Source of the DNA: an uncultured Bacteroidales bacterium
GTDB taxonomy: Bacteria > Bacteroidota > Bacteroidia > Bacteroidales > JBBRXJ01
Length of the DNA stretch: 58,871 bases
Direction of reading: 5' to 3'
NCBI GenBank assembly: GCA_964549265.1
Contig: CAZJWE010000003.1
Location: 1 to 58,871, forward strand
The notes beneath the pieces are model-generated. The model saw nothing but the letters and a program-made list of their open reading frames with translations, was not told the origin of the DNA and did no database searches. Below, piece after piece: positions 3,391 to 52,890 of this stretch. The first letter of the stretch is position 1. Each line of letters opens with the position of its first letter. A program made the position numbers and the translations under genes.

Positions 3391-3391
3391 C

Positions 3392-4681: not shown

Positions 4682-4747
4682 AAAACATGCGCTACTGCAA
4701 ATTTATGAAGAGAATTAAGGATGTTAATGCCTGAATAAAGTTGTCAA

Positions 4748-5812
4748 CTATTTATGCATTAACATTCTCCCTTCCTTAACATAAAAACTTTTTTCCAGTT
4801 CTTTTTTACGGTTTCCGTCTGAGACAACAATTAAATAATCGCCCGGCTCAATTTTAAAATGATCATCCGGATTTTTTATCAATTCATAATGTCCGTTTTG
4901 TTTTTTACTGATGCCCATTAAAATGGTATTGAACTCTTCTTTTATTTTCACAAACACCTCTTTGCAAGAAAGGCCTGCATACGGATTCTTTTCCGACACA
5001 TAAAACTCCATAAAATCAAAGGATTTATCATGTGTTGCAGTGGTGATAAGGTCTTCTGTAAACTTTGCCACATCGGGTTCAAAAATAAAACTGGCAATGA
5101 GTTTTGAGCTGATCTCTTTTTCAGGAATGACGTATGTTGCCCCTGCACTGTAAAATGTATCTTTTAATTCTGTATTCGACAAATATGCCACAACATTGAT
5201 ATCTTTAAACGCTTTTCTCAAATTAATGAGATAAACCAATGCTTTGGAATCATCTTCCATGTTGATAAAAATCGAAGATGATTGATGGATATTAGCCTTT
5301 TTCAACAGGTCAAGCCCTTGAATTTCGCCAAAAATAACAAACACATTGTCAGGATAAATTTCATAAATTAAATCCACATCATTTTTATTGTTTGTAATGG
5401 CCACTACCTGCTGATTCGCATTGATGATTTGATCGGTAATGGATTTCCCAAACTCATTCCATCCCACAATGATGACATGATGCGAAAAATCTGTGCCGAA
5501 ATGGCCTAATTTTTTCTTTTCCATATAGTTTTGAATTTTATGTGTGATTTGACCAATCAAATAGCTCAAGACACCCAGGCTGAATAGTATCAGTATCAAT
5601 CCGACAATTTTTCCCGGCACTGTCACTGGATAAAGATCGCCATACCCTACGGTGGTTAAGGTGACAATGGAGTACCAAAAGGCATCGAACAAGGTTTTTA
5701 TTGAACTGCTATCATTGTTGAATTCAAAATAACGGATGGTAGCCAATAAAAACAGAAAGATAAGAAGGGCAATAAAAATTTTAAGAACCTGATATAATGG
5801 TTTTTTTTTCAT
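4748..5812 (-). CDS. Potassium channel with a cytoplasmic RCK/TrkA-N domain
   Basis: The selectivity filter 'TTVGYGD' sits between two TM helices. A Rossmann-like RCK domain follows ('HVIIVGWNEFGKSI'). The ORF is open to an ATG at 5836. I prefer the ATG at 5812 ('MKKKPLYQ'), which overlaps the upstream stop as ATGA. Confidence 0.85.
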   Translation of the reverse strand: MKKKPLYQVLKIFIALLIFLFLLATIRYFEFNNDSSSIKTLFDAFWYSIVTLTTVGYGDLYPVTVPGKIVGLILILFSLGVLSYLIGQITHKIQNYMEKKKLGHFGTDFSHHVIIVGWNEFGKSITDQIINANQQVVAITNNKNDVDLIYEIYPDNVFVIFGEIQGLDLLKKANIHQSSSIFINMEDDSKALVYLINLRKAFKDINVVAYLSNTELKDTFYSAGATYVIPEKEISSKLIASFIFEPDVAKFTEDLITTATHDKSFDFMEFYVSEKNPYAGLSCKEVFVKIKEEFNTILMGISKKQNGHYELIKNPDDHFKIEPGDYLIVVSDGNRKKELEKSFYVKEGRMLMHK

Positions 5813-6105
5813 TCTATTACTTCCGGGATTAAACATTGTAGTTGATTAATAAACAACTGATTTTTGCGTGCATTGCAACTACTGATCTCAACGTAAGTCT
5901 TTCCTGCTTCCGGAAAGGTATGAATGGCCAAATGGCTTTCTGCAAGTATCCATATAGCAGTGAATCCCTCATTTTCAAATATTTGATGTACTTTTTGCAG
6001 CACATTAAACCCTGCGATGGATAAATATTGATCCATAGTATCTATTAACTTATCAACAGACGTTTCATTGATCCAGCATTGATGATTGAATATTTCAGCC
6101 TTCAT
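5809..6105 (-). CDS. Small S-adenosylmethionine decarboxylase-like (pyruvoyl, SpeH/class 1 type) protein
   Basis: 98 aa. The autoprocessing/active-site block 'LAESHLAIHTFPE' is present (Glu-Ser cleavage site). A downstream 'EISSCN' cysteine aligns with 'DLFTCG' of class 1 AdoMetDC. The protein is shorter than typical SpeH. Confidence 0.7.
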   Translation of the reverse strand: MKAEIFNHQCWINETSVDKLIDTMDQYLSIAGFNVLQKVHQIFENEGFTAIWILAESHLAIHTFPEAGKTYVEISSCNARKNQLFINQLQCLIPEVIE

Positions 6106-6207
6106 GTATTCATGTTTTACATCTCAAAAATAAAGAAAAAAATAACACTTAATCAGGATGCTTTTTATTATTTTCGTCTCTGGATTTATTTATAAAAATT
6201 TTAATCA

Positions 6208-8271
6208 ATGCATTCAATAGTTAAAAGACATAATATATTTATCTGGATACCTATCATTTTATTTCCGTTGATCACATTAAACATCACTGTTGACCCGGTT
6301 TTACCAGTTCGATTCACAATTTTGGCGATATTTCTTACAGGTTTTTCATTGTATTTTTTAATAAACAAGGACACGTTAAAAATAAAAAGCTCATACAATG
6401 TTAACATATTAATATTAACCATCAGTGCATTTGTTTTATATAATGTATTCAGCATTATCATAAGTCCACATCCGGGTGATGCACTTTTTGAATTTTTAAA
6501 ACTTTATTTAATTCTGTTAACTGGCATCCTTTTTTATATTTACTATTATGATAACTCCTATGAATTCCTGAATAATTTTGTTATATCAATTAATATTCTA
6601 ACCATTATTATAAGCATATGGGGAATATATAACTATATTTATTTTTATTCTTCTACAGAACTCACTCATGCTATACTTTATGAAATCCGTACATCTTTTG
6701 CTCATAAAAACTTATTTACAGAAGTCCTCTTTTTATGCATCCCGTTTACTGTTTATGCTGCATTTTTTAAAAACAAATGGCAACAGGTTTTGGGAGTGTC
6801 CAACACTATTTTTGTTATATTTTTAATTGTCGCATTGCTAACCAGAGCCGTTTGGGTTGCTTTTTTTGCAGGAATTGTATTTTTTTGTATCTGTTATATC
6901 ATCGTGTTTATTAAAGAAAAAAACAAACAGATGTTATGGAGGATATCTCCTGTAGTCATCAGTTTGCTGGTGGTTATTTCTATTTCTGCCAATTGGTACC
7001 TGACAGCAGATGTATCAAATCCCATAAAAAAACAAGTCATTAAAACGTTTAATACTGAATATGGATCTGTTAAAGATAGAATTGTATTATGGAAAAAAAC
7101 ATACAAACTCATCAAAGAAAAACCATTTTTTGGCCATGGAACAGCTTCCTGGAGAACGAAAATTTTAAAATATGGGAATAAAGATTTGCGTTCACAGGAT
7201 CATGTTACGTTCTATCAACGCCCTCATAATGATTATCTTTGGATAGCCAGTGAAAACGGTTTCATAGGCCTTGCATTATATCTTTTACTATTTTTAATGG
7301 TTGGTATGATGGGATTAAAATTAATTTTCAATAAAGAGAATCCTGTTTCACTAAAAATTAATGTGCTTCTTTTATTATCCGCAATGGTTGGATATTTAAC
7401 CTATTCTGTTTTCAGTTTCCCCAAAGAACGAATTATACAACCATTACTTATATGTTTGATGGCTGCAACCTTTTTTTCATTAACTAAAAACAATAAAACC
7501 CTAAAATTAAGAAGAATACACCTGCTAACATTATTTATTCCGGTATATTTTTCACTATTTTTTGGATTTGTAAGAATAAATTCAGAAATTTGTACACGTA
7601 AGATATACAAAGCAAGAGAAAATCAACAATGGAAAGAAGTTATGAATTTAACGCCCAAAACTGTTAATATCTTTTATAATATGGATGCATTTTCAACACC
7701 CATAAAATGGTATAGTGGCAATGCCTGGTATAACCTTGGCAATATAGAATATGCTGTGAATGATTATGAAGAAGCGTATCAAATAAATCCATATCATATT
7801 CATATCCTCAATAATCTTGGGACTTGTTACTCAAAATTGAATCGAAATGCTGAAGCCATTAAATATTATGAACAGGCATTAACCATAGCCCCGAATTTTA
7901 GAGATGCTATTCTTAATTTAAGCGCCATTTATTATAATAAAAACAAATATACAGAAGCATACAAGGTACTGCGAAAAGACCCGGAACCGCCTTCTACCAA
8001 AAGATTCATCCACACATTACGATACATTCTAAAGCCTTTTTTTGAAGACATTGTATCTTCAACTTCTGAAAAGCCATTAAAAAAACAATTTATTGCCATT
8101 TTTAATACACCTGCATGGACATATGGTGTACATAAGAAGTCCATTCAAAATCAACGTTCATTCAGAGATCAACTTTATATAGATGCTATATATACTTTAA
8201 CTGAAATAGACAGTATCTATTCTTCTTCTTTTGCCGATTCGTTAACCTTAAAATATCATATTAAGCCATGA
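6208..8271 (+). CDS. O-antigen ligase-like (Wzy_C/WaaL/PglL superfamily) polytopic membrane protein with a C-terminal TPR domain
   Basis: 687 aa with about 10-12 TM helices. The Wzy_C signature loop is present ('FGHGTASW...RPHNDYLWIASENGFIGLALYLLLF'). The C-terminal ~200 aa carry TPR-like repeats ('AWYNLGNIEYAVNDYEEAYQINP...LNNLGTCYSKLNRNAEAIKYYEQALTIAPN'). Confidence 0.75.
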   Translation: MHSIVKRHNIFIWIPIILFPLITLNITVDPVLPVRFTILAIFLTGFSLYFLINKDTLKIKSSYNVNILILTISAFVLYNVFSIIISPHPGDALFEFLKLYLILLTGILFYIYYYDNSYEFLNNFVISINILTIIISIWGIYNYIYFYSSTELTHAILYEIRTSFAHKNLFTEVLFLCIPFTVYAAFFKNKWQQVLGVSNTIFVIFLIVALLTRAVWVAFFAGIVFFCICYIIVFIKEKNKQMLWRISPVVISLLVVISISANWYLTADVSNPIKKQVIKTFNTEYGSVKDRIVLWKKTYKLIKEKPFFGHGTASWRTKILKYGNKDLRSQDHVTFYQRPHNDYLWIASENGFIGLALYLLLFLMVGMMGLKLIFNKENPVSLKINVLLLLSAMVGYLTYSVFSFPKERIIQPLLICLMAATFFSLTKNNKTLKLRRIHLLTLFIPVYFSLFFGFVRINSEICTRKIYKARENQQWKEVMNLTPKTVNIFYNMDAFSTPIKWYSGNAWYNLGNIEYAVNDYEEAYQINPYHIHILNNLGTCYSKLNRNAEAIKYYEQALTIAPNFRDAILNLSAIYYNKNKYTEAYKVLRKDPEPPSTKRFIHTLRYILKPFFEDIVSSTSEKPLKKQFIAIFNTPAWTYGVHKKSIQNQRSFRDQLYIDAIYTLTEIDSIYSSSFADSLTLKYHIKP

Positions 8272-10667
8272 AGAATCTGTTTTATTTATTATTCGCCGTA
8301 TCATTATTCATTCATCAACCTGTTATACAATCCCAAACACTTCAATCCATACTTCCCGATTCAGCTTACCAGGGGGATGGTTTAAGTGTGACAATCAGCG
8401 GGGAAGGCACTCATTTTAGCCAGGCCACATATACCATCGTATATCTAAATCAGGCCAGCAGTACGATTTTCCCGACACAGACAATAATTCAAAACAATAC
8501 CCGGATTGATGTTGAATTTGAATTCACCAATAACTATAAAGCGGGGATATATGACTTATATTTATATAATGATGTAGATGAAAGTATGGAACTTCCATCT
8601 GCATTTGAATTGCTTAAAGACACAATCCCTCCTGAAATAAGCGCAGTTGAACCGGATTCGGCATACCTTGAAGATAAATTAATGATCAACATTTCCGGTT
8701 CCCATACCCATTTCAAACAAGCTTCTAATGTTATTCGCCTGCGGCAAGGGACTTACACCATATCTCCCGATTATCAAAACGCAACAAATTATGACCAGAT
8801 TGAAGCTGAATATAATTTTGATGCAATGGATCCAACAGGATTTTACGACCTTGAAATTGAAAATGAGGCTGACGGGGTATTAACTTTTGAAAATGCCATT
8901 GAACACCTTAGTATAGAAAGGCCAATGCCCGTATTAAAAAACATTTCACCCGACATCGGCTATGTTGACAGTACTTTAATGACGACAATAACCGGCGAAA
9001 ATACACGATTCAACCAGGGAACAAACGTGACTGTGATCCTTATAAATGAAAACAATAAAAGAATTTATGCATCAGAGAATGTAATCAATGATACCAAAAT
9101 GCAGGTATATTTTAATTTTCGGCCATATCACGATACAGGACTGTACAATGTTCATGTTGATGATTACTATGATGATAACTTAATGATAGAAGATGGTTTT
9201 TATTTAAAACCAGACCAGACACCTCCCTTACTTCATACAATAAATCCAAATCAGGCAAAACAAGGAGAAACGATTGAATTACAAATAAGTGGAAAAAATA
9301 CACATTTTCAACAGGGCACCTCTTCTGTTGTATGGTTGAAAAAAGACGGAAACCCAATACATCCGGTTAGTAGAAATGTTATAAACGACACATTAATTTA
9401 TGCAACATTTGACTTTAATTGGACAGATAGTATCGGATATTATGATGTTCATCAATATAATGTTGAAGACAGGGAAATTTTATGCCAAAACTGCTTTTTG
9501 CTGAAAGAAAACCCCAATGCCCCGGCATTGGCCGGCCTCTCCCCTTCTGAAGGAAACAAAGGACAGCAATTAACACTTACAGTAACAGGCAGCAACACAC
9601 ATTTTCAACAGGCTACATCTGTAAGTTATTACCTCTCTAAATCTCAGACATCCATTTATCCTGATAATATTCATGTCATCAATGATTCCATTGCAGAACT
9701 GGATTTTTCATTTACACACCAACTTACACCGCAACAATATGACTTACATGCTTCTAATCCTATAGATGGGGGATTAAAACTTACTAAAGCATTTACATTG
9801 AATGATTATAATGTCTTGCCGGAAATCACTTCATTGAGCACAGATACTATTTTTTACAATGAAAACAACACCATCCATCTCGGATTTGATCATTCACACT
9901 TTATTGATGCTTCCGAACATTCATTATTCCTTAAACGGACAAATCCTTTTTATGAGATTCAGGTAAATAACATCACCATCCATCAAAATGATAGCTTAAC
10001 ATTCACAGTTAACCCCGAAGATGCAGTACCCGGAAGATATTCTATTGTTGCGTACAATAATTTTGACGGAGAAATCACATTAAATGATACCATAAAAATA
10101 CAACATCGTCCTGAAGTGCCATCTATCATTAACCTGATTAATGATACACTTCAATTACCAGGACAATACAATGTGAATGTTTATTGCCAAAACACGCATT
10201 TAGGCCAGGGAAACGACTCTGTATATCTTTTAAAGAATGGCATTGAAGCAATAATAGAAGCCGATAGTGTAATTGTTTATAATGAAGTTCATTTAAAAGC
10301 ATTCTTCACCATACATTCCAATGATATTGGAACGTATGACCTGTATATTACCAATCCTGCTGATGGTACCTTAACCGCTCCAAATGCTTTAATTTATAAT
10401 GTAGTAACCAATATTCAAAAGCAGGATAGAAAAAATACATTTAAAATATATCCCAATCCTACAAGTGGTTTGATTTACATCGAATCCCGTCCAAATGCTA
10501 TAAACCATTTATTGTTGCATTCAATTCAGGGTACAACATTAGTAAACAAACCGGTATTACAGGATGGAACCATTCAGTTGGATTTACAAAGGTTTGGAAG
10601 AGGAACGTACATCTTGACTATCATAAATGAAAACCAAAAAATTCTCAGAAAAGTTATTGTTAAATAA
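8268..10667 (+). CDS. Secreted T9SS cargo protein with seven IPT/TIG-like repeats
   Basis: 799 aa with a signal peptide. Seven ~95-100-aa repeats each carry 'I(S/T)G.NTHF.Q(A/G)' and 'G.YDL...N' blocks. The C-terminus is a T9SS sorting domain ('FKIYPNPTSGLIYIE...GTYILTIINENQKILRKVIVK'). The ATG overlaps the stop of the upstream gene (ATGA at 8268-8271). Confidence 0.8.
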   Translation: MKNLFYLLFAVSLFIHQPVIQSQTLQSILPDSAYQGDGLSVTISGEGTHFSQATYTIVYLNQASSTIFPTQTIIQNNTRIDVEFEFTNNYKAGIYDLYLYNDVDESMELPSAFELLKDTIPPEISAVEPDSAYLEDKLMINISGSHTHFKQASNVIRLRQGTYTISPDYQNATNYDQIEAEYNFDAMDPTGFYDLEIENEADGVLTFENAIEHLSIERPMPVLKNISPDIGYVDSTLMTTITGENTRFNQGTNVTVILINENNKRIYASENVINDTKMQVYFNFRPYHDTGLYNVHVDDYYDDNLMIEDGFYLKPDQTPPLLHTINPNQAKQGETIELQISGKNTHFQQGTSSVVWLKKDGNPIHPVSRNVINDTLIYATFDFNWTDSIGYYDVHQYNVEDREILCQNCFLLKENPNAPALAGLSPSEGNKGQQLTLTVTGSNTHFQQATSVSYYLSKSQTSIYPDNIHVINDSIAELDFSFTHQLTPQQYDLHASNPIDGGLKLTKAFTLNDYNVLPEITSLSTDTIFYNENNTIHLGFDHSHFIDASEHSLFLKRTNPFYEIQVNNITIHQNDSLTFTVNPEDAVPGRYSIVAYNNFDGEITLNDTIKIQHRPEVPSIINLINDTLQLPGQYNVNVYCQNTHLGQGNDSVYLLKNGIEAIIEADSVIVYNEVHLKAFFTIHSNDIGTYDLYITNPADGTLTAPNALIYNVVTNIQKQDRKNTFKIYPNPTSGLIYIESRPNAINHLLLHSIQGTTLVNKPVLQDGTIQLDLQRFGRGTYILTIINENQKILRKVIVK
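8340..10413 (+). repeat. Seven tandem ~290-300-nt coding repeats (IPT/TIG-like domains) inside the 8268..10667 CDS
   Basis: The protein-level periodicity is read from the translation. Repeats are diverged, with low nucleotide identity. Boundaries are approximate. Confidence 0.7.
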
Positions 10668-10721
10668 ACCGTTGCATACATAATACGATACTGCTGCAAT
10701 TTTTGTGGAAAAAGTTTTTAA

Positions 10722-10985
10722 TTTATCAACCATATATTAGAATTAATAACATCAATTTCTGAGCAAATTGGAGAGATTAAAGCAGCCAGATTAACTAAAC
10801 CGCCAACAGAACTAAGAAAACGAAACAGGATTAAATCAATCCAGTCAACTTTGGAGATTGAAGGCAACACTCTTACAATAGAGCAAATAACAGACCTGAT
10901 TAACAATAAAAGGGTTTTGGCCCCTCAGAAAGATATACTGGAAGTTAAAAATGCAGTAAATGAACAATTTTTGGAACAAGTATAA
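10722..10985 (+). pseudogene. Remnant of a Fic/DOC family gene: N-terminal fragment with the inhibitory helix, no Fic core
   Basis: An open frame with no ATG/GTG/TTG start near its 5' end translates to 'FINHILELITSISEQIGEIKAARLTKPPTELRKRNRIKSIQSTLEIEGNTLTIEQITDLINNKRVLAPQKDILEVKNAVNEQFLEQV*'. It contains the (S/T)xxxE(G/N) inhibitory motif ('TLEIEGN'). It stops before any HxFx(D/E)GNGRxxR motif. Confidence 0.6.
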
Positions 10986-11025
10986 TGATGCAAACAGACA
11001 TTACAGCCAAAGATGAATTTGCAGC

Positions 11026-12579
11026 TTAATACAAATCCCACGAACCATTCAAGAAATACCGATACACCACAGGATTGTGAATGGTATTGATTTCGATGGA
11101 GCCTGTATCCTGAAAAAAATAATTTTTGCCGAATGAAGTGATCAATGACATGGCCTCATGATTGATCCAGTGTGTTTGGATGTCATTCAAGCGGATGTTA
11201 TGCAAGGCTTTTTTAATTTGCTCATCTGATATATTATTGTTAACACCCAACACCCATCCCCATTCGCCCATCGTGATGATCTGATTATGCAATGGAATAG
11301 CTGACAGGCCTGCTTGTTCCATGGTATTTAATATACATTTGAAACTTTTTGAAGCAAAATACGGGCTTCCTGCCTGGGTAACGATGATCCCGTTAGGGCG
11401 CAAATGTCGTTTTAACATGGAATAAAACTCCAATGAATAGAATCTTGCCAGCTCCACATTTCTCGGATCAGGAAGGTCTATGATAATGATATCATAAAAC
11501 CATTGATCATGCACAACATATTGATAAGCATCCTGGTTAATAATTTTCACTTTGCTGTCTTTAAGCGCATGGTTATTTATTTCAGTCAGTGCCGGATGTG
11601 TTTGAGCAAGCTCCGTCATTACCGGGTCAATATCTACCAGCCGAACAGACCGGACAGAAGTATGTTTAAGCACTTCACGGACAGCACACCCGTCTCCCCC
11701 ACCCAGCACCAAAATGTCTTTGGGTAAAGGGTGCTGTTTCATGGCCGGGTGCACCAATACTTCATGATACAATGGTTCATCATAGGATGCAAACTGAAGG
11801 TTGCCGTTTAAATACAACCAATAATCGTCTTTCCACTGGGTAATGACGATCTTTTGATATCGGGTTTGCTTTTCAAACACAATTTTATCTTTATACTTTT
11901 TCTGTTCACCATAAAAAATAATCCTTTGTGCATTGAACGCACCCATAACTATGAACAGCACCAATCCAATGGCTGCAATATTCAGCGAGAATCTTTTAGA
12001 GGATTTAATGACAGAGGGAAAAAAATTGAGCATGGCAATGGCAACCAATAAATTGATAGCACCAAGCACAAATGGTGTATAGGTTAATCCCAGGTGTGGC
12101 AACCCGATAAAAGCAAAAAACAAACCACCCACAAGGCTTCCATAATAATCTTTTTCGAGGATGTTGGAAATATTGAATTTTAATGCTTCAAATTTATTAT
12201 TCAAGCGGACAGCCAGAGGCAATTCCATCCCTATGAGTGTTCCGGTGATAATGGCCAGTATATAAATCAATAAGCCGGCATATATGGTATGAGCAGCAAC
12301 GGAATAGGATAATAATGCTGCAAATGAAACAATGATAGACAGTGCAAACTCCGTCAGAATAAAAAGGATGAATTCGTTTTTGGATATAAATTTTGTGATC
12401 CGCGCCCCTACGCCCATGAAAAATAACATTAAAGAGATGATCAATGCCCATTGAACAATGGAGTCTCCTAATAAATAGCTGGCCAGTGTGGCCAATATAT
12501 ACTCAGATACAATACCGGACAATCCGGTTGCAAACAGTGCAACCTTAAGTATGTAGGATTTATTTCTCAATATTGACAC
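11026..12579 (-). CDS. Membrane-anchored spermidine/spermine-synthase-like aminopropyltransferase
   Basis: 517 aa with a GTG start. The N-terminal ~210 aa are polytopic (about 7 TM). The C-terminal domain has intact aminopropyltransferase motifs: 'VLGGGDGCAVREV', 'LVDIDP' and 'IIIDLPDP'. Confidence 0.8.
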   Translation of the reverse strand: MSILRNKSYILKVALFATGLSGIVSEYILATLASYLLGDSIVQWALIISLMLFFMGVGARITKFISKNEFILFILTEFALSIIVSFAALLSYSVAAHTIYAGLLIYILAIITGTLIGMELPLAVRLNNKFEALKFNISNILEKDYYGSLVGGLFFAFIGLPHLGLTYTPFVLGAINLLVAIAMLNFFPSVIKSSKRFSLNIAAIGLVLFIVMGAFNAQRIIFYGEQKKYKDKIVFEKQTRYQKIVITQWKDDYWLYLNGNLQFASYDEPLYHEVLVHPAMKQHPLPKDILVLGGGDGCAVREVLKHTSVRSVRLVDIDPVMTELAQTHPALTEINNHALKDSKVKIINQDAYQYVVHDQWFYDIIIIDLPDPRNVELARFYSLEFYSMLKRHLRPNGIIVTQAGSPYFASKSFKCILNTMEQAGLSAIPLHNQIITMGEWGWVLGVNNNISDEQIKKALHNIRLNDIQTHWINHEAMSLITSFGKNYFFQDTGSIEINTIHNPVVYRYFLNGSWDLY

Positions 12580-12582
12580 TAA

Positions 12583-13488
12583 CTATAGGCACCAGGTTAT
12601 CAATATAGCCCCACCAATATAAGCAAATGCTTCAATAACAGAAGCACCTGTATTAGGTTTTTCCTGATTGATGAGTTCGTCTGTCAGATTTTCGCCGGGC
12701 AGGAGAATTTTATCGGTAGCCAAACGGACAACAGGCAATAATATAAATCCAATAAGCATTTCTATGGCCATTTCCATAAAATGTTCTCCCCACGAATGAA
12801 AATCACCGCTTATGCTATGTCCGATAAGAATACCAAGTGCTACTATTGCGCCGGCAAATCCAATTCCCACAGCTATATTATCTTTTTCAATATGTTCGTG
12901 CACATTGAACGGTGTGATCAGGTTGTAAAACAAACCGCCGAGTATCAATACGATTTGTCCGGCAAGCCAAAAGACAACCGAGGTGATGATGCCCGAATAC
13001 AATAAACCATACGGGAGGTCGGGAAAAAATGACTTTCCCGTGCCGGTGACTGCTCCCATGATAATAACCCCTGAGGCTACCATGTTGGCTGCTTCTATGA
13101 CCCCTGTCCCGGCATTTTGGTCTTCCACGATTTCCTTTTTGGTACTGAAGGTGTGCAAAATAACTTTATCATTAATGAATGACGAGATGTTTAAAAGTAT
13201 AATTGCCAATACCCCATATACTCCAATATCAAGAACGTCTATCCATATTCCTGCTGATGGGCCGATGATAGCGCTTCCAATAGCAAGCAAGAGGCCAATA
13301 TAATAACCTGTATTGGCCAATGCAAAGGCAAAGTTGTCTTTTTTTACCAGTTCATGTTTCACATCAATTTTTCTTCTGATCTGATCATATACCAATTTTC
13401 CGATAAAAAATAAGATGAAAGCACTTAAAAGATAAATAAGTGTTTCAATGATCAAAACCAGGTTTGGATTGTTAATGTATTCTTCCAT
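12583..13488 (-). CDS. Integral membrane protein built from four DUF350 (YjfL-like) units
   Basis: 301 aa with four repeats of TM - acidic loop - 'N.A/G...' - TM. The repeat cores are 'DNFAFALANTGYYIG', 'QNAGTGVIEAANMVA', 'DNIAVGIGFAGAIVA' and 'PNTGASVIEAFAYIG'. Confidence 0.7.
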   Translation of the reverse strand: MEEYINNPNLVLIIETLIYLLSAFILFFIGKLVYDQIRRKIDVKHELVKKDNFAFALANTGYYIGLLLAIGSAIIGPSAGIWIDVLDIGVYGVLAIILLNISSFINDKVILHTFSTKKEIVEDQNAGTGVIEAANMVASGVIIMGAVTGTGKSFFPDLPYGLLYSGIITSVVFWLAGQIVLILGGLFYNLITPFNVHEHIEKDNIAVGIGFAGAIVALGILIGHSISGDFHSWGEHFMEMAIEMLIGFILLPVVRLATDKILLPGENLTDELINQEKPNTGASVIEAFAYIGGAILITWCL

Positions 13489-13509
13489 GCTTTATTGTTT
13501 TTTTAATGA

Positions 13510-14265
13510 TTATTTTCCAAAGCCTCCGCTTCTTGATCTATAGTTGGATCCTCCGGAGTATCTTGATCCGCTGCGCCGAATCCGGGATGATGAACTCTTA
13601 TTAACCCTGCTTCGGACACGTTCTCTGAATGACTGAGGTTTAGCCCCCCATGAGGTATTTCTTCCCGAAGAGGTTTTATTGACATAATTTTTAGTACCAT
13701 AATATCCACTCGGGCCATAATAATCGCGTCCCGAATTCCGGTAGCTCGAATAATAATTATTCCAATAGCTTTGCCTGGCAGGAAATGTAGCCATGTTAAA
13801 TATGCTTGACAGCATGGCGTATTTGCCATAAAACTCCCAAAACGAACTGCCATTACGTTGCCTCCAGGTACCATATTTTTCATTGCCAACGTAATTGGAA
13901 TATCCGGCTGGAGCTACATTTTTTGTGAGTTTCCCATCTTTTTTGGAGGCGATCTCCATACCAAGGTTATTTAAATTTTGTTTAAAAAACCGGTCTGAAA
14001 CCTCATACCATTGTGTTGTTTTGGTGTCAAAAGTAGTATCTGATTTTGGATATACAACCTGATATTGATGCTTATACTTATCCTGGTAATCCATGTCTTT
14101 GAGGATTACTGTAAAATCGGATAAATGACTGTTTTTTTCAATCACTTTATCCAGTCCTTCTTTTTGGTATTTATATTGATCTTTCTGCTTGCATCTGCCT
14201 GAACTAATAATAATTAACATAAAAACACCTAATATAACGACTAAATATGTACTTCCTCTTTCCAT
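13510..14265 (-). CDS. Signal-anchored or lipoprotein-like protein with a Tyr/Ser/Arg/Gly-rich disordered tail (positional analogue of YjfM/DUF1190)
   Basis: 251 aa. It has an N-terminal hydrophobic anchor ('YLVVILGVFMLIIISSGRC') and a small globular middle part. The C-terminal ~90 aa are low complexity ('YWNNYYSSYRNSGRDYYGPSGYYGT...SGSRYSGGSNYRSRSGGFGK'). Confidence 0.55.
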   Translation of the reverse strand: MERGSTYLVVILGVFMLIIISSGRCKQKDQYKYQKEGLDKVIEKNSHLSDFTVILKDMDYQDKYKHQYQVVYPKSDTTFDTKTTQWYEVSDRFFKQNLNNLGMEIASKKDGKLTKNVAPAGYSNYVGNEKYGTWRQRNGSSFWEFYGKYAMLSSIFNMATFPARQSYWNNYYSSYRNSGRDYYGPSGYYGTKNYVNKTSSGRNTSWGAKPQSFRERVRSRVNKSSSSRIRRSGSRYSGGSNYRSRSGGFGK

Positions 14266-14292
14266 GTTTATAAATATTTATGGATTTAAAAA

Positions 14293-14835
14293 TTATTGTT
14301 CTGCCGGGATGATGTTTGAGATTTCAAATGGTTTGAGCAATTTCCCGACAGATGCTTCAAATTCACGTTCCCCCCATTGTTCTATTGTGATCACTGTATC
14401 TCCGGGATCATTATAATAATCCCAACTAATGAGCTCCAACCATTCTTTTTGAGTGCCTTCTTCTTTAAAATATCCGGGAGATTCACTTTCAAAAAAATAT
14501 TTTTGTTGTTGGTATGTGATCTCATCCGGTGGTTTATGGTTCCTTGCAATTTCATCCAGAATATTTTCTTCAATCTTATTGAGCCTGATTTTTTCAAATA
14601 GTATCACTTCTACTTCATCATCTTCTTCTACACTTAAAAATTTCATGTCATCACCCGACGATATTTTAAATTCTTTGCTGAATTCATTATTGCCCCAGTC
14701 ATAGGTATATTCGGCAACAACATGCCATTCTTTCAAATCATATTCAAAAACAAATCCTTTTTTAATATCCGTTACTTGTATGTTTAACGGATCATAATTT
14801 GCTTTCTTTTTGTTTTTGAAAATGTTAAAACCCAT
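14293..14835 (-). CDS. DUF4178 domain protein
   Basis: 180 aa, soluble and beta-rich ('GFVFEYDLKEWHVVAEYTYDWGNNEFSKEFKISSGDDMKFLSVEEDDEVEV'). The pattern is typical of DUF4178 proteins found next to PspA/DUF350 genes. Confidence 0.65.
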   Translation of the reverse strand: MGFNIFKNKKKANYDPLNIQVTDIKKGFVFEYDLKEWHVVAEYTYDWGNNEFSKEFKISSGDDMKFLSVEEDDEVEVILFEKIRLNKIEENILDEIARNHKPPDEITYQQQKYFFESESPGYFKEEGTQKEWLELISWDYYNDPGDTVITIEQWGEREFEASVGKLLKPFEISNIIPAEQ

Positions 14836-14840
14836 AGCGC

Positions 14841-15545
14841 TTATTTATTGTTCATTTTTGCTTTCAGGTCTTCCAATGCATTGCTTGCAGCCACATCAGA
14901 TGAGCCACTCAAGGCTTCATTAATCTCATTGTCAATACTTTGTCCTTCATTAGATATTTCACCATATGCCTGAGCTAATGATTCCTGCTGGTCAACCTTA
15001 TCTTTCATTTTTTCGAGCATGGAAATGGTTCCACTGCTATCTACATTGGCCATTGATTTATTGAGTTTTGAAGTAGCCTGGCTCACTCTGTACCGTGCTT
15101 TAAGCATTTTAAGCTCGTTTTCATATTTCGCAATGTTGGATTTTAATTTCTCTACATTGTTATTGAGTTGGCTAATTTGTCCCTGAAGCTGATTGTACTG
15201 ATGAGTGGATTGTTGAACCTGCCGTTGAGCTTCTTCTTTGCGTTTAAGGGCTTCTGTTGCCAGGCGGTTTGATTCTTCTTCGGACATCTCGCCTGATTGT
15301 GCTTTTTGAACAAGCTGTACAGCTTTATGTTCATAATTTTTGGCTTTGGCTGCATTGTCTGATATTTCTTTTTTGGTGCGGATAGCAACAGATTTGACTT
15401 CTGCCAAAGATTGCAAGCTTTTATCCAGTTGTTTTTTTAAATCCCTGATGCCTTGTTCGGTCATTTTAATAGGATTTTCGAGCTTGTCAACTGCAGCGTG
15501 AGCTTCAGCTTCGCCCACTTTAAAAATTCGTTTAAATAATCCCAT
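14841..15545 (-). CDS. pspA: PspA/IM30 (ESCRT-III-like) family membrane-stress protein
   Basis: 234 aa. The N-terminus 'MGLFKRIFKVGEAEAHAAVDKLENPIKMTEQGIRDLKKQL' and the long heptad coiled coil match the PspA/IM30/LiaH family. Confidence 0.85.
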   Translation of the reverse strand: MGLFKRIFKVGEAEAHAAVDKLENPIKMTEQGIRDLKKQLDKSLQSLAEVKSVAIRTKKEISDNAAKAKNYEHKAVQLVQKAQSGEMSEEESNRLATEALKRKEEAQRQVQQSTHQYNQLQGQISQLNNNVEKLKSNIAKYENELKMLKARYRVSQATSKLNKSMANVDSSGTISMLEKMKDKVDQQESLAQAYGEISNEGQSIDNEINEALSGSSDVAASNALEDLKAKMNNK

Positions 15546-15547
15546 AA

Positions 15548-15940
15548 TTAATTCTTTTTAGATATTTCAATAAGTCGGTTACCATATTCAGCCAATAATA
15601 ATTCCAACGATTCCAATGTGGCTTCTATTTCATTGTAATCAAGATTTTCCAATTGAAGCGTGTCTCTGAAAATCACAGTATCATCCTCTGTTAAAGCAAA
15701 TGCCCCGTGGATGATATCCCTGTTTTTTGCTAATAATTCTTTTACTATTTCCAGACTATTGGTATTCAATTTGAATAGCGGATATTCAAAAATCAGTATA
15801 GGGTCTTCACAGTCAATGATTAATTTATGAATTCCGGCATCTTCGTTTTCAACGACAAATAATTCTTCCGCCTGGTCTTCTTCCAAAATATTGTACTCCA
15901 TTTGAAGTAAATATTCTTTAACTTTTGAGAATGCATTCAT
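15548..15940 (-). CDS. YbjN-like (T3SS-chaperone-fold) small acidic protein
   Basis: 130 aa, acidic. The pattern 'LFVVENEDAGIHKLIIDCEDPILIFEYPLFKL...HGAFALTEDDTVIFRDTLQLENLDYNEIE' is typical of YbjN/DUF2170-type proteins. It is the first gene of the operon. Confidence 0.55.
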   Translation of the reverse strand: MNAFSKVKEYLLQMEYNILEEDQAEELFVVENEDAGIHKLIIDCEDPILIFEYPLFKLNTNSLEIVKELLAKNRDIIHGAFALTEDDTVIFRDTLQLENLDYNEIEATLESLELLLAEYGNRLIEISKKN

Positions 15941-16109
15941 GATAATAATTGTTTTTTATTTTATGCAATATTATAAATTTTTTAAGAATATAAATCTATA
16001 ATTAATCAATTTTTAAAATATTAATTTTATGTTAATATTTTTAAATGATTTTTGAATTCTATTCATACAAACGCTTTAACAAAAAAAATATTCTTTGGAA
16101 TGTCTTTAT

Positions 16110-17399
16110 TTAAAAATTGGAGCTATTGGTCAAATTTTTAAAGTCATCGCCACTGGGATGTTGGAATAATGTAAGATCAAACTGGGGTATAACAGCCATT
16201 AGATGATCAAAAACATCAGCTTGAATCCCTTCATAAACAGCCCAGTTTTGTTCTTTACTGAATGCATAAATTTCGAGGGGAAGCCCTTTTTCTGTTTGTT
16301 GTAATTGTCTTACCATTGCAATAAACGAGCTGCCTTCTCCATGTATTTTCGGATGGTTTCTGATGTATGATTCAATGTATTTTCTAAAAACACCTATATT
16401 GGTCAGCCGCCGCCCATTAAGCATATCACCCTTTTGAAGGTTTTTGGCTTTATTGTCTTCTTCAATTTCAACTCTTTTTTGTCTGATATAATCTGCTATC
16501 AGCTTGATTTTTTCATATTTTTCGAGCATTTCTTCAGTACAAAAACAAATGCTTTTTACATTGATATGTAGCGCCCTTTTAATTCGCCTTCCACCAGATT
16601 CCTTCATCCCCCTCCAATTACTGAACGACTCAGACACCAAAGCATATGTAGGGATTGTGCTGATGGTTTTGTCAAAGTTTCTCACTTTTACTGTGTTCAG
16701 GGTAATCTCAATCACGTCTCCATCTGCACCGTGGCTGGGCATGGTGATCCAATCTCCTAATTTTACCATATTATTGGCTGTTAACTGAATACTGGCTACA
16801 AACCCCAGTATTGTATCTTTGAAAACGAGTAATAATACAGCAGCCATTGCACTCAAGCCGGTCAAAAAGTACAATGGATTTTTATTGAAAATGACAGAAA
16901 GGATTAATATACCGCCAATAAAATACAATCCCAGTTTAAGAATTTGAATAAATCCTTGAATAGAACGGTCTTTTGAAACATCAAGATTCAAATATATTTC
17001 ATGAGCCCCATTAATCAGTGCATCAAACACGGATATTCCAAGCACGATCATATAGATTCCAATGATGGTTTTGATCAGGTGTATTATTTCAGGGTGTCCT
17101 GAAATTAAATCAGATGAAAAAAAAATGACCAAAGCAGGGGCAAAATGTGCCAAGCGGTTAAATAGTTTCCGTTTTAAGAAAATATCATCCCACCATATTT
17201 TACTTTTCTTAACATAATGCGATATAGCAGCTAATAAAAACCTTTTTGCAATAAAATTAGCAAGCAGACTTAAAACGGCAACAATAAATACAACGATAAA
17301 TACAAGCAAATAATCAGAAATACCGGAAGCAACTCCCAGTTGCTGAATCCAATGATTTAAAGCTTTGATCTGATCGTGAAATATATTTATAATTATCAT
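16110..17399 (-). CDS. Mechanosensitive ion channel, MscS family
   Basis: 429 aa with N-terminal TM helices. The MscS core is present ('VFKDTILGFVASIQLTANNMVKLGDWITMPSHGADGDVIEITLNTVKVRNFDKTISTIPTYALVSESFSNW'). Confidence 0.85.
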   Translation of the reverse strand: MIIINIFHDQIKALNHWIQQLGVASGISDYLLVFIVVFIVAVLSLLANFIAKRFLLAAISHYVKKSKIWWDDIFLKRKLFNRLAHFAPALVIFFSSDLISGHPEIIHLIKTIIGIYMIVLGISVFDALINGAHEIYLNLDVSKDRSIQGFIQILKLGLYFIGGILILSVIFNKNPLYFLTGLSAMAAVLLLVFKDTILGFVASIQLTANNMVKLGDWITMPSHGADGDVIEITLNTVKVRNFDKTISTIPTYALVSESFSNWRGMKESGGRRIKRALHINVKSICFCTEEMLEKYEKIKLIADYIRQKRVEIEEDNKAKNLQKGDMLNGRRLTNIGVFRKYIESYIRNHPKIHGEGSSFIAMVRQLQQTEKGLPLEIYAFSKEQNWAVYEGIQADVFDHLMAVIPQFDLTLFQHPSGDDFKNLTNSSNF

Positions 17400-17417
17400 T
17401 TTATAAAAAGACTCTAT

Positions 17418-18791
17418 TTATAGTTCCGGGAAAAAACCCTTATGAATAACATTCAACGCCTTATTCAAATCGCCTTTTGTTATAATGACTGATATGTTTA
17501 ATTCGGAAGACCCTTGGGCTATTCCCACGACATTGATTTGATGGGTTCCCAAAGAATGGAACAAAGATGCCGATATTCCGGGAGTATGCTTCATTCCTTC
17601 ACCAACAACGGCAATAATAGATAAATGCGGTTCGATATCAAGTTGAATATCTTTGTCCAGTTCCATTTCTTTGTAAAATTCTTTTGCAATGCCTTTTTGT
17701 GCTTTATCTGTATCTGTCGGATCAATGGCAAAACTGATTGAATGCTCAGATGAAGCCTGGGTGATCATAATAATATTAATCTCACGGTCAGCCAACACAC
17801 CAAACAAACGACTTGCAATACCAGGTACTCCAGCCATCCCGGAACCCTGTAATGTCAACATAGCCACATCATCTATAGATGATATTCCTTTTATCAAGGC
17901 TTCTTTGCCGGTGTCTCCTTTTCTGCTGATGACAGTGCCTTTTGAATTGGGGTTGAATGTGTTTTTAATGACCACAGGTATATTTTTCAGATATACCGGA
18001 CGTATTGTGGGAGTGTAAATCACTTTTGCACCAAAATGAGAAAGTTCCATTGCCTCGGCATAACTAAGCTGCTCAACAGCAAAAGCACCTTCTACTATTT
18101 TAGGATTGGCTGTTAATACTCCGTCTACATCTGTCCATATCTCAAGGACATCGGCATTTAAACAGGAAGCAATAATGGCCGCTGTATAATCAGACCCTCC
18201 TCTTCCGAGTGTCGTGGTTTCCCCCTCTTCATCAGAAGCGATAAATCCGGGTAAAATAAATGTCTTGCTACCTCCTTCCAGTTTTTTCTGAATAATGTTG
18301 TTTGTTATTTCAAAATTCACATTGGCTTTACCAAAATGATTATCTGTGATGATCACTTTTCTTGAGTCAATGAAAAACCCTTCGTCAATGATTTCTCCTA
18401 TGATATATGCAGAAAGTAATTCGCCAAAGCTTAACACATGGTCAGATATTTTATTTGTGACCTCTTTAAGAAAATAAATGCCATTCAACATATTGGCCAG
18501 TTCTTCAAAAGACTTATCAATATTTCGTTTCATAGAATCCTGGTGGCCCTTGTTGGGCATAAGTGCTTCAATGGCTTCATGATGGCGATTAATCATTGAC
18601 TGCAACTCTTCTTTATAACTATCATTCCGCTGCTTTGCCAACGACAACATCCGCATAAGCTGATCTGTAACACCTTTAAAAGCAGATACCACTACAATTG
18701 AATTTTGTGGCTGACTTTCAACTATTTCTTTAACTTTCTCTATCATTTCAGGACTTCCAACAGAAGTTCCTCCAAATTTTAATACCTTCAT
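17418..18791 (-). CDS. lysC: Aspartate kinase
   Basis: 457 aa. 'MKVLKFGGTSVG' marks the amino-acid kinase fold. 'GRGGSDYTAAI' is present, and there are two C-terminal ACT domains. Confidence 0.9.
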   Translation of the reverse strand: MKVLKFGGTSVGSPEMIEKVKEIVESQPQNSIVVVSAFKGVTDQLMRMLSLAKQRNDSYKEELQSMINRHHEAIEALMPNKGHQDSMKRNIDKSFEELANMLNGIYFLKEVTNKISDHVLSFGELLSAYIIGEIIDEGFFIDSRKVIITDNHFGKANVNFEITNNIIQKKLEGGSKTFILPGFIASDEEGETTTLGRGGSDYTAAIIASCLNADVLEIWTDVDGVLTANPKIVEGAFAVEQLSYAEAMELSHFGAKVIYTPTIRPVYLKNIPVVIKNTFNPNSKGTVISRKGDTGKEALIKGISSIDDVAMLTLQGSGMAGVPGIASRLFGVLADREINIIMITQASSEHSISFAIDPTDTDKAQKGIAKEFYKEMELDKDIQLDIEPHLSIIAVVGEGMKHTPGISASLFHSLGTHQINVVGIAQGSSELNISVIITKGDLNKALNVIHKGFFPEL

Positions 18792-21050: not shown

Positions 21051-22601
21051 TTAAAAAGGAGCTTCATCTTCATTATTGAAATCAAAACCTTTGCCCATTT
21101 CAAAAGCCTCATTGGCATCATCAACTCCGGGATCAGCTTCATCATTCATTTTTGAACCATAAGTAACCCCTCCTGTCCCATTGCTTTCGTCGTTTGGCAT
21201 TGAGAAATCCTGTGTATCCAGTTCCGTGAATTTAGCAAATTGATCCCTGAATTTAAGCTGAACATCACCTAATGGGCCGTTCCGGTGTTTTGCAATAATG
21301 ATTTCAGCAATGTCTTTTAACGAATTGCCTTCCTCATCTTCTATGAATCCATATTTTTCCGGCCTGTGTATAAATAATACCAAATCAGCATCCTGTTCAA
21401 TGGCTCCGGATTCGCGAAGGTCTGATAATTGTGGACGTTTGTTGCCAGATCGCATTTCTACAGAACGGTTTAACTGAGATAGTGCAATGATTGGGACATC
21501 CAGCTCTTTTGCAATGGCTTTGAGTGATCTGGATATCACACTGACTTCCTGCTCCCTGTTGCCTCTGGCATCACCGGGGCCTGTCATAAGCTGAAGATAA
21601 TCAACAAATATGGCCTGGATATCATGATTGGCTTTGAGCCTTCTGCATTTGGCCCTGAATTCAAATATTGATAATGCGGGTGTATCATCAATATAAAGAG
21701 GAACATTGTCTAAATTTTTAATTTTGTATGTTAATTGTTCCCACTCATATTTTTTTAGGTTTCCATTTCTAATTCGATCAGAAGCAAGTTCTGTTTCAGA
21801 GACGATTAAACGATTTACTAACTGAATTGAAGACATCTCCAATGAGAATATAGCGACTGATTGTTTGTGTTCAACAGTCATATTCCTCGCCATCGAAAGA
21901 ATGAAAGCTGTTTTCCCCATAGACGGCCTGGCTGCTAAAATCACAAGGTCAGATTTTTGCCAACCTGAGGTAATTCTGTCGAGGCTTGTAAAACCAGAGG
22001 GCACACCACTCAAATGCCCCTCTTTCTGACTTGCTTCCTCGATTTGCTTTATAGCTTCCTGTATGAGTACATTCAGTTTTGATGTTTCTTTATTGATATT
22101 GCCCTCTGCTATAGCAAAAAGCTGTTGTTCCGAAAAATCCAACAGATCATCTACATCAATACTCTCATCATAAGCCCTGGTCTGGATTTCTGTGGAAGCC
22201 CTAATAAGTTCGCGTTGAATATGTTTCTGTGCTACAATGTGAGCATGGTATTCGAGATTGGCAGCAGATGCAACCCTGCTTGTTAATTGAGTAATATAAA
22301 ATGGCCCTCCAACTTCATCCAATTCCTTTGACTTACGCATCTCTTCTGTAACAGTAAGAATATCAACGGGTTTATGTTCTGAGGCAAGGTTAAGTATGGT
22401 CGCATAAATCTTTTGATGTGCTTCTGTGTAAAAACTTTCGGGCTTAAGAATATCCATTACCGTGATAATGGCATCTTTTTCAAGCATGACTGCACCCAAT
22501 ATTGCTTCTTCAAGATCAGTAGCCTGTGGAGGCATTTTTCCATAATCAATATCCACAGAAGTAATTCGTCTTGCGTTTTGAGAGTTGTTTTTTCCTGCCA
22601 T
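21051..22601 (-). CDS. dnaB: Replicative DNA helicase
   Basis: 516 aa. The DnaB N-terminal domain is present ('PPQATDLEEAILGAVML'). Walker A is 'ARPSMGKTAF', and 'DYLQLM' is present. There is an acidic C-terminal extension. Confidence 0.95.
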   Translation of the reverse strand: MAGKNNSQNARRITSVDIDYGKMPPQATDLEEAILGAVMLEKDAIITVMDILKPESFYTEAHQKIYATILNLASEHKPVDILTVTEEMRKSKELDEVGGPFYITQLTSRVASAANLEYHAHIVAQKHIQRELIRASTEIQTRAYDESIDVDDLLDFSEQQLFAIAEGNINKETSKLNVLIQEAIKQIEEASQKEGHLSGVPSGFTSLDRITSGWQKSDLVILAARPSMGKTAFILSMARNMTVEHKQSVAIFSLEMSSIQLVNRLIVSETELASDRIRNGNLKKYEWEQLTYKIKNLDNVPLYIDDTPALSIFEFRAKCRRLKANHDIQAIFVDYLQLMTGPGDARGNREQEVSVISRSLKAIAKELDVPIIALSQLNRSVEMRSGNKRPQLSDLRESGAIEQDADLVLFIHRPEKYGFIEDEEGNSLKDIAEIIIAKHRNGPLGDVQLKFRDQFAKFTELDTQDFSMPNDESNGTGGVTYGSKMNDEADPGVDDANEAFEMGKGFDFNNEDEAPF

Positions 22602-52766: not shown

Positions 52767-52824
52767 AATTTTAAATTTTGGATGCAAATATAATAACATA
52801 CATATTACAATCATAATAAAAAAT

Positions 52825-52890
52825 GGCTCTATTCTATAAATGGTTGATAAATTTAACAAATTTGAATTTAGATTTTGAACTTAAACCAAG
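52825..52890 (+). repeat. Intergenic repeat family B, copy 2
   Basis: The sequence is 'ggctctattctataaatggttgataaatttaacaaatttgaatttagattttgaac'. It lies just upstream of lysA. Confidence 0.75.

Follow-up and report, generated by a model that had tools for sequence, protein, structure and literature searches.

We analysed a 58,871-nucleotide (nt) stretch of DNA from an uncultured Bacteroidales bacterium (assembly GCA_964549265.1, contig CAZJWE010000003.1, positions 1 to 58,871), which we call the window. Six open reading frames (ORFs) lie on its minus strand between 11026 and 15940, separated in order by 2, 5, 27, 21 and 3 nt, and because the gaps are only 2–27 nt we treat the block as one transcription unit. 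The first gene (ORF 1, 15548–15940) encodes a small, acidic, cytoplasmic CesT/Tir-like (YbjN-like) protein of 130 amino acids (aa) that partners PspA, and the second (ORF 2, 14841–15545) encodes a PspA/IM30 protein, by family an ESCRT-III-like membrane-binding polymer. These are followed by genes for a soluble, acidic, cytoplasmic DUF4178 protein (ORF 3, 14293–14835), an N-terminally anchored, extracytoplasmic protein of 251 aa (ORF 4, 13510–14265; hereafter protein 4), a double-DUF350 integral membrane protein of the YjfL family with about eight transmembrane (TM) segments (ORF 5, 12583–13488), and a polyamine aminopropyltransferase that starts at GTG and carries an N-terminal domain of 6–7 TM segments (ORF 6, 11026–12579). 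Two more minus-strand genes, displaced from what are usually positions seven and eight of the operon, encode a 98-aa pyruvoyl-type homologue of S-adenosylmethionine (AdoMet) decarboxylase (5809–6105) and a K+ channel whose cytoplasmic RCK domain (TrkA-N/TrkA-C) senses ligands (4748–5836). The window operon is a new Bacteroidota copy of a type of cluster known from earlier comparative genomics, an identification in which we have high confidence.

A preliminary description of the same DNA had given the spacing of the six ORFs and assigned them to families, and both the spacing and the assignments were borne out. Profile searches support five of the six proteins. ORF 1 matches CesT_Tir_1 (PF22550) at 4e-47 and YbjN at 1.5e-7 in Pfam and has an isoelectric point (pI) of 4.24. 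Its gene is followed directly, after 2 nt, by the PspA gene, whose product matches PspA_IM30 (PF04012) over residues 2–230 at 3.2e-41 (141.8 bits against a gathering cut-off of 33.9), begins with the amphipathic segment MGLFKRIFKVGEAEAH and scores far under the NCBIfam equivalog cut-offs for PspA (49.8 vs 243) and LiaH (49.5 vs 380). ORF 3, which has no signal peptide, matches DUF4178 (PF13785) at 5.8e-23; ORF 5 matches the 133-position, 4-TM DUF350 model (PF03994) in two stretches at 2.6e-54; and ORF 6 matches Spermine_synth at 3.5e-37 and passes the NCBIfam equivalog NF002956 for long, membrane-anchored polyamine aminopropyltransferases (551.5 bits, cut-off 472). Protein 4 has no Pfam or NCBIfam match, and what we see in it is the anchor and tail already pointed out in the preliminary description: a single N-terminal hydrophobic/TM segment and a basic tail (pI 10.9) ending in RSRSGGFGK.

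The same gene set has been listed before. Ravi et al. (bioRxiv 2020; mSystems 2024; PMC11237479) distinguished three operon classes built on a CesT/Tir-PspA pair. The second combines a spermine/spermidine synthase bearing an N-terminal 7-TM domain, a YjfL-family 8-TM DUF350 protein, a lipoprotein that they reported as new ('Ctha_1186' domain and low-complexity region) and DUF4178, sometimes with an added ribbon-helix-helix regulator, and is exemplified by Shewanella oneidensis SO_3765; the third is the Escherichia coli yjf type with an ATP-grasp ligase (PMC11237479). The six families of the second class appear to be those of the window operon, so the preliminary description was mistaken in calling the system as a whole undescribed. 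Protein 4 resembles the lipoprotein of Ravi et al. in architecture (an N-terminal anchor, an invariant Cys, canonical lipoboxes in its relatives and a low-complexity tail), a likeness drawn from the published description. Gene order differs between the two: in Shewanella the lipoprotein, DUF350 and enzyme genes come first and the ribbon-helix-helix regulator last, whereas the window reads CesT-PspA-DUF4178-lipoprotein-DUF350-enzyme and has no regulator gene. Ravi et al. listed a K+ channel under their third group and AdoMet decarboxylase under variants of that group and neither under the second; in contrast, Bacteroidota copies usually carry an RCK K+ channel and a homologue of the decarboxylase. 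In a literature search, we found DUF4178 discussed in no work other than that of Ravi et al.

To describe conservation we compared 150 related loci, using two independent anchors, the enzyme and the lipoprotein. The enzyme-anchored set comprised 71 loci, mostly from Bacteroidota, together with Nitrospinota, a Pseudobacteriovorax and a Ca. Anammoxibacter, and their ORFs were classed by iterated profiles. For the lipoprotein-anchored set we took the best 80 of 542 species-genome loci with a protein-4 relative and counted the 56 that had enough flanking DNA. Among these 56 loci, DUF4178 is present in all, DUF350 in 55, the enzyme in 53, PspA in 49 and CesT, directly upstream of PspA, in 47; the AdoMet decarboxylase (AdoMetDC) homologue is found in 39 and the K+ channel in 36. 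The six genes are thus co-conserved in related genomes, as the preliminary description had expected, with each partner gene present in 47–56 of the 56 loci.

The enzyme-anchored loci fall into five arrangements, four of which include partner genes. In 12 of the 71, the order is colinear with the window, CesT-PspA-DUF4178-lipoprotein-DUF350-enzyme, and the AdoMetDC homologue then follows in most and the K+ channel often. In about 23 loci from Flavobacteriaceae, Dokdonia and Algibacter among them, the order is (GNAT)-AdoMetDC-K+ channel-DUF4178-lipoprotein-enzyme, and PspA, CesT and DUF350 are missing. Nine loci of a Tenacibaculum type read DUF4178-DUF350-enzyme-AdoMetDC, and in Nitrospinota a lipoprotein-DUF350-enzyme run has CesT-PspA-DUF4178 convergent just downstream. 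The same families also occur in other gene orders and on other strands in Nitrospinota, Pseudobacteriovorax and Shewanella. Chance falls far short of explaining such an arrangement, since dozens of genomes belonging to several phyla carry the block in colinear form. The usual Bacteroidota operon has eight genes, the last two being those for the AdoMetDC homologue and the RCK K+ channel. Many variants without PspA and CesT still have the enzyme and DUF4178 together with the lipoprotein, DUF350 or both, so the notion of a 'PspA operon' by which the preliminary description organised the locus is not supported. The conserved core is the membrane-embedded aminopropyltransferase of the type that uses decarboxylated AdoMet (dcAdoMet), the 8-TM DUF350 protein, and DUF4178 with the anchored protein that carries a basic, Lys-terminated tail.

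These distributions also bear on the suggestion that the fused enzyme is simply a housekeeping spermidine synthase whose neighbours are unrelated envelope genes, adjacent by coincidence. Its NCBIfam name is indeed that of an ordinary polyamine aminopropyltransferase, and in five of the 71 enzyme-anchored loci (L008, L018, L021, L028 and L069) the enzyme stands without partner genes, although the contig of L021 is only 2.9 kb long and in L069 a K+ channel gene adjoins. We nevertheless regard coincidence as very unlikely: the genes stay adjacent in Bacteroidota, Nitrospinota, Bdellovibrionota and Gammaproteobacteria even where their order and strands have been reshuffled, partner genes are fused to each other in some genomes, and the narrow gaps in the window indicate a single transcription unit.

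Some of the related loci carry additional genes. In five loci from Cyclobacteriaceae and Roseivirgaceae (L111, L139, L143, L144, L146), a second, convergent TM-fused synthase paralogue and a K+ channel gene lie just past the main operon. In several PspA-less Dokdonia-type loci, a GNAT acetyltransferase gene precedes that for AdoMetDC (for example L039 6669–7205), and its product could be a polyamine acetyltransferase.

The decarboxylase homologue and the channel had both been missed in the preliminary description. The decarboxylase homologue is leaderless and matches AdoMet_dc (PF02675) at 1.3e-14 (54.8 bits, cut-off 25), and its Glu-Ser processing site, His and Cys (LAESHLAIHTFPE...SC) have the spacing known for pyruvoyl AdoMet decarboxylases (SpeD/SpeH class 1) and align with the solved AdoMet decarboxylases 2iii and 1tlu. 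The simplest reading of this protein is that it decarboxylates AdoMet, since its gene normally adjoins that of an aminopropyltransferase: in most relatives the AdoMetDC gene lies next to the synthase gene and usually follows it by no more than a few hundred nt, and in the colinear type it is directly downstream. The neighbouring channel matches Ion_trans_2 (4.7e-17), TrkA_N (1e-16) and TrkA_C (7e-6). In the window the two genes abut, share the strand of the operon and lie 4.9 kb downstream of it, and the pair is orthologous to the AdoMetDC-channel pair found directly after the enzyme gene in L002, L004, L009, L012 and L013, where the channels that follow AdoMetDC are 42–57% identical to that of the window.

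The intervening DNA holds plus-strand genes for a Wzy_C/TPR membrane protein and a TIG-repeat protein sorted by the type IX secretion system (T9SS) (6208–10667), identified by Pfam matches and outside the system; we did not find them in related loci, save for a weak Wzy/TPR match upstream of the operon in L009. A remnant of a Fic gene (10722–10985, plus strand) occupies the spacer that separates the T9SS cargo gene from the end of the gene for the synthase. Only the N-terminal 75 or so residues are left (residues 18–92 of 343 in PDB 4rgl, E 4e-12), and the remnant has neither a canonical start codon nor the catalytic domain of Fic proteins. We infer that a rearrangement split an ancestral eight-gene operon and so displaced the AdoMetDC/channel pair, and the Fic remnant is probably a scar of this event.

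The catalytic half of ORF 6 is that of a known enzyme family. The best sequence matches in the PDB are the thermospermine synthases 6bq2 and 7xif (2e-36), together with archaeal and Thermus aminopropyltransferases. An AlphaFold2 model built with 43 homologues has a mean predicted local distance difference test score (pLDDT) of 86.3, and its C-terminal half superposes on aminopropyltransferases with Foldseek E values of about 1e-17 and target TM-scores of 0.74–0.81; these matches cover the catalytic domain only and say nothing about the TM domain. The motifs noted in the preliminary description as intact, GGGDG (293–297), DIDP (D316, D318, P319) and DLPDP (D368, D371, P372), are invariant in the 43 homologues and align to 6bq2 and 7xif, and Q238, Y241, Q242, D267, E268, Y271, H272, E273 and D350 are likewise invariant. 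These residues are the dcAdoMet-binding and catalytic positions known for the family: GGGDG forms the loop that binds dcAdoMet, DIDP provides the acidic residue that follows beta-2, and D-x-x-D-P is catalytic. The protein is therefore very probably an active aminopropyltransferase. Soluble aminopropyltransferases (ACL5 thermospermine synthase and the Thermus and Pyrobaculum SpeE) share the catalytic fold and motifs; in contrast to them, ORF 6 has about 225 residues of TM helices ahead of the catalytic domain and sits in an envelope-stress operon.

The public gene call for the synthase (P0121) is 463 aa long, begins at an internal Met and so drops the first two TM helices. Since homologues of 513–516 aa align across 99–100% of the 517-aa frame that starts at the GTG at 12579, the longer frame is to be taken as the correct one. 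The Rossmann part of the enzyme (residues 284–424) also matches mad2 of the MADS system in PADLOC at 8e-19; the other MADS components are absent, and the match is a fold-level similarity among class I AdoMet-binding enzymes. Apart from this match and coiled-coil noise on PspA, PADLOC returned no defence system.

We then considered the DUF4178 protein and protein 4 together. A profile search of 1.84 billion representative proteins recovered 826 protein-4 clusters at 50% identity. In an alignment of 36 homologues, Cys25, with which the hydrophobic N-terminal stretch ends, is invariant, the aromatic-rich central segment is strongly conserved (APAGYSxYVGNEKYGxWxxRNGxSFWEFYGKYAFMSSMFNM), and the terminal RSRSGGFGK is near-invariant; the tail of the window protein consists of 23% Ser, 15% Arg, 14% Gly and 13% Tyr. 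Canonical lipoboxes, for example LSISC-G and LFQGC-G, are found in most of its relatives. The SGRC of the window protein is atypical, and for this reason the window protein may be an uncleaved signal-anchor. AlphaFold2 predicts a small alpha/beta domain at residues 35–118 (pLDDT 79–91) with low values for the remainder, and a Foldseek search with this model, confident only at 35–118, gave no PDB match at E < 1. Of the 150 best protein-4 representatives, 126 end in Gly-Lys. The other 24 include seven that end in an arginine run (mostly GGRRR), and about half of the remaining 17 break off within the conserved central segment and look truncated.

Several genomes fuse the two partners. In P0267, P0272, P0278 and P0302, an N-terminal DUF4178 domain is followed by one TM helix and then by the protein-4 ectodomain and tail, and the Lys/Arg-rich flank of the TM helix sits on the DUF4178 side. 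The Tenacibaculum fusion joins DUF4178 to a TM helix, the Cys and the tail alone (...YYRGRSSRGFGK). Since DUF4178 has no signal peptide, these fusions make it cytoplasmic and locate the domain and tail of protein 4 on the outer side of the membrane. Because such fusions exist, the two adjacent window genes (14293–14835 and 13510–14265) can be argued to work as one trans-membrane unit.

Other variants of protein 4 were seen as well. Among P0344, P0360, P0384, P0265 and P0330 are one architecture in which the anchor and about 250 residues of coiled coil precede the conserved domain, one with a tandem duplication of the domain, and some tails that end in GGRRR, not GK. In Dokdonia ponticola (L063 8999–9802) the protein-4 gene loses the conserved tail in the called frame, a frameshift or sequencing error.

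Putting these parts together, we read the locus as a Bacteroidota copy of a conserved inner-membrane stress module, although we are slightly more inclined to doubt than to accept the mechanistic picture as a whole. In that picture, the decarboxylase would supply dcAdoMet, and the fused enzyme would use it to make a tri- or tetra-amine at the cytoplasmic membrane. By way of the enzyme's TM domain and/or DUF350, the polyamine would enter or cross the bilayer and there neutralise and stiffen anionic lipid surfaces. The DUF4178/lipoprotein pair would couple the envelope state on the outside to the machinery within, the CesT-like protein would hold PspA until PspA polymerises on damaged membrane, and the K+ channel would rebalance cation charge, K+ being the other main cellular cation. 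This picture agrees with the general PspA-polyamine coupling of Ravi et al., who proposed to link PspA membrane dynamics with the concentration of polyamines or with the aminopropylation of other substrates (PMC11237479). The recurrent link between a PspA paralogue and a polyamine enzyme, drawn in the preliminary description, holds in our comparison and is strengthened by the decarboxylase homologue.

An alternative is that the module is chiefly a sensor and regulator, in which the membrane enzyme, DUF350 and the DUF4178/lipoprotein unit monitor polyamine or cation status or envelope strain and control PspA assembly and K+ flux, its polyamine output being incidental. In favour are the proposal of Ravi et al. 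that polyamine concentration is monitored by the PspA system, the ligand-sensing RCK domain of the channel, and the DUF4178/lipoprotein pair, which spans the membrane in the manner of a signalling unit. We consider the sensor explanation unlikely, however, because the catalytic residues of the enzyme are strictly conserved and because about 70% of loci, PspA-less variants included, have a dedicated decarboxylase gene accompanying that of the enzyme, which points to real flux through the enzyme.

Several points weigh against the polyamine-supply picture. Export by the TM domain or DUF350 is a pure inference. The 98-aa decarboxylase homologue falls under the AdoMetDC equivalog cut-off (TIGR03330, 47.8 vs 75.65 bits), and among SpeD homologues there are some that decarboxylate ornithine or arginine instead (PMC10407285). 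In the window, both the decarboxylase and channel genes lie outside the six-gene transcription unit. PspA and CesT appear as frequent but dispensable accessories whose role may be only loosely coupled to that of the core. The literature search returned no functional study of DUF4178 or of the Shewanella and mycobacterial relatives (SO_3763-3765 and Rv2597-2601).

The sidedness of the enzyme is the last of these points. Six or seven TM helices precede residue 230, and a linker of four residues joins the TM and catalytic domains. In the AlphaFold2 model there are six long helices before the catalytic domain, with residues 137–186 forming one continuous helix through the invariant GLPxLGLTYTP; six helices with the N-terminus inside would give a cytoplasmic catalytic domain, on the side of the membrane on which dcAdoMet is produced. 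Hydropathy, in contrast, shows two peaks in the stretch 137–186. Across the 43 homologues, the mean number of Lys and Arg residues is 3.9 in loop 185–199 and 2.2–3.1 in the N-terminus and loops 58–70 and 122–146, as compared to about 0 in loops 36–42, 95–103 and 158–170. By the positive-inside rule, these counts favour seven TM segments and a catalytic domain outside the cytoplasm, contrary to the polyamine-supply picture. On balance we give the cofactor logic and the predicted model, both of which speak for a cytoplasmic catalytic domain, slightly more weight than the charge rule.

The charge-based topology matters for a further explanation, in which the enzyme aminopropylates a head-group amine of a membrane lipid (for example phosphatidylethanolamine) or the C-terminal Lys of the lipoprotein, giving a cationic lipid or protein much as MprF gives lysyl-phosphatidylglycerol. 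With the catalytic domain outside it would lie on the same side as the lipoprotein tail, and the short linker to the TM domain and the frequency of the Gly-Lys end also speak for such an acceptor, as does the aminopropylation of other substrates raised by Ravi et al. On the other hand, both acidic residues of D-L-P-D-P, which are typical of diamine or polyamine acceptors, are invariant, the closest solved enzymes all use free polyamines or agmatine, and dcAdoMet comes from a leaderless, cytoplasmic decarboxylase while the tail is extracytoplasmic. We know of no aminopropyl-lipid or aminopropyl-lysine reported in bacteria, which counts against this explanation too, and we give it a low probability.

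The Gly-Lys terminus invites one more comparison. Braun's lipoprotein Lpp is N-terminally lipid-anchored and has an invariant C-terminal lysine that is cross-linked to peptidoglycan. The protein-4 family and Lpp are alike in being N-terminally lipid-anchored envelope proteins with a C-terminal lysine, but they have no known sequence similarity, and Lpp is a short coiled coil. That protein 4 might be attached to peptidoglycan through its terminal Lys, as Lpp is, is only an idea. More broadly, the DUF4178/lipoprotein unit might be a trans-envelope tether or strain sensor whose C-terminal Gly-Lys is used covalently, either in a peptidoglycan cross-link or through aminopropylation by the fused enzyme; we think this improbable. 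If true, it would be new envelope chemistry, in which an aminopropyl transfer that is extracytoplasmic or directed at a protein is tied to repair by PspA, and for the aminopropylated form the charge-based 7-TM topology would set the catalytic domain outside the cytoplasmic membrane.

The preliminary description had also drawn a parallel with the E. coli yjfIJKLMC locus, of which the general architecture stands and the position-by-position equivalence does not. Like the window operon, the yjf locus has a CesT-superfamily gene and a PspA paralogue first, a DUF350 membrane protein and, as its last gene, a polyamine-handling enzyme; DUF2170 was placed in the CesT/Tir superfamily by Ravi et al. (PMC11237479). 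By hhalign, PspA and YjfJ (95.8%) and the DUF350 protein and YjfL (83.9%) are homologous. In contrast, no homology was detectable between the CesT-like protein and YjfI (11.6%), DUF4178 and YjfK (9.8%) or protein 4 and YjfM (0.8%) in this comparison with single E. coli sequences, which may have missed remote homology. YjfM is like protein 4 only in style, with an anchor ending in LKGC and a Ser/Arg/Gly-rich tail ending ...RGGYGRSSSARGHWGG. The yjf locus has DUF2491 where the window has DUF4178 and DUF1190 where it has protein 4, and Pfam found neither DUF2491 nor DUF1190 among the window operon proteins. The DUF350 protein is single (4 TM) in yjf and double in the window, and the yjf enzyme is an ATP-grasp peptide-spermidine ligase whereas that of the window is an aminopropyltransferase with no ATP-grasp gene present. 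The two loci, then, have an analogous architecture and two shared families; they are not one operon with a swapped enzyme. The classical Psp (PspF-PspABC) and Lia systems share with the window a PspA/IM30 effector with an N-terminal amphipathic helix. The partner of PspA in the window differs, being the CesT-like protein, and no match to PspF, PspB, PspC or LiaI/LiaF was found among the window genes scanned.

PspA/ESCRT-III membrane repair is well studied alone, and its repeated neighbourhood with a polyamine enzyme has been noted only in silico. What we add to the known cluster is the decarboxylase homologue, the RCK K+ channel, the DUF4178-lipoprotein unit, the Gly-Lys terminus and the question of enzyme sidedness. 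If it is true that local polyamine synthesis serves membrane repair or cation homeostasis, the module would bear on tolerance of cationic peptides and osmotic stress. The cluster is widespread, and culturable carriers include Shewanella, Dokdonia, Tenacibaculum and Fulvivirga.

At the 5' end of the operon, a block of 48 nt on the minus strand (15941–15988), directly before the first ATG, is near-identical in the closest relative, L001, an uncultured Bacteroidales metagenome-assembled genome with 83–95% protein identity across shared genes. Because this block is conserved while the rest of the spacer has diverged or bears indels, it is a probable promoter and 5' leader, which suggests that the operon has its own, separate from those of the MscS-type channel gene upstream (16110–17399, PF00924). 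A scan for sigma-70 promoters was set aside, as it gave 32 sites against 30.4 in shuffled sequence, and an Rfam scan of 4000–18000 matched no riboswitch or other RNA family. About 100 nt past the synthase stop, a consensus scan marks a terminator-like hairpin (10909–10926, minus strand) with a 6-pair stem, three G-C pairs and a T-rich tail, which we take as weak evidence. The MscS gene is present, as the preliminary description had said, but it is not meaningful context: MscS occurs in one of the 56 lipoprotein-anchored loci and adjoins the operon only in L001, and in L010 (the same as L098) it lies 2.3 kb off on the opposite strand. We therefore rejected it as part of the module.

Around the operon are ordinary chromosomal housekeeping genes, including those for aspartate kinase, DnaB, LptF/G, Tgt, LeuRS and LysA (17418–18791, 21051–22601, 23748–25972, 46148–48913 and 51534–52859), and the presence of several T9SS-sorted proteins suggests that the chromosome is that of a member of the Bacteroidota. 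The pyridoxal phosphate-dependent decarboxylase at 51534–52859 was considered as a source of putrescine and ruled out, being LysA. Two adjoining plus-strand genes of the SPFH/Band_7 type (2056–3390 and 3392–4681) are flotillin-like, with weak FloT matches, and converge with the K+ channel gene; a 214-aa ORF without an assigned family (1369–2013) precedes them. Band-7 proteins are another PspA-associated class (Ravi et al., PMC11237479). The flotillin-like pair (2056–4681) was not found in related loci and was rejected as part of the module, and its proximity may be chance. On the minus strand, 10 kb from the PspA gene, lies a pair of genes for TPM-domain (TPM_phosphatase) proteins (26340–27638 and 27613–28053), the TPM domain being a partner of PspA in Firmicutes operons of the ydjFGHL type.

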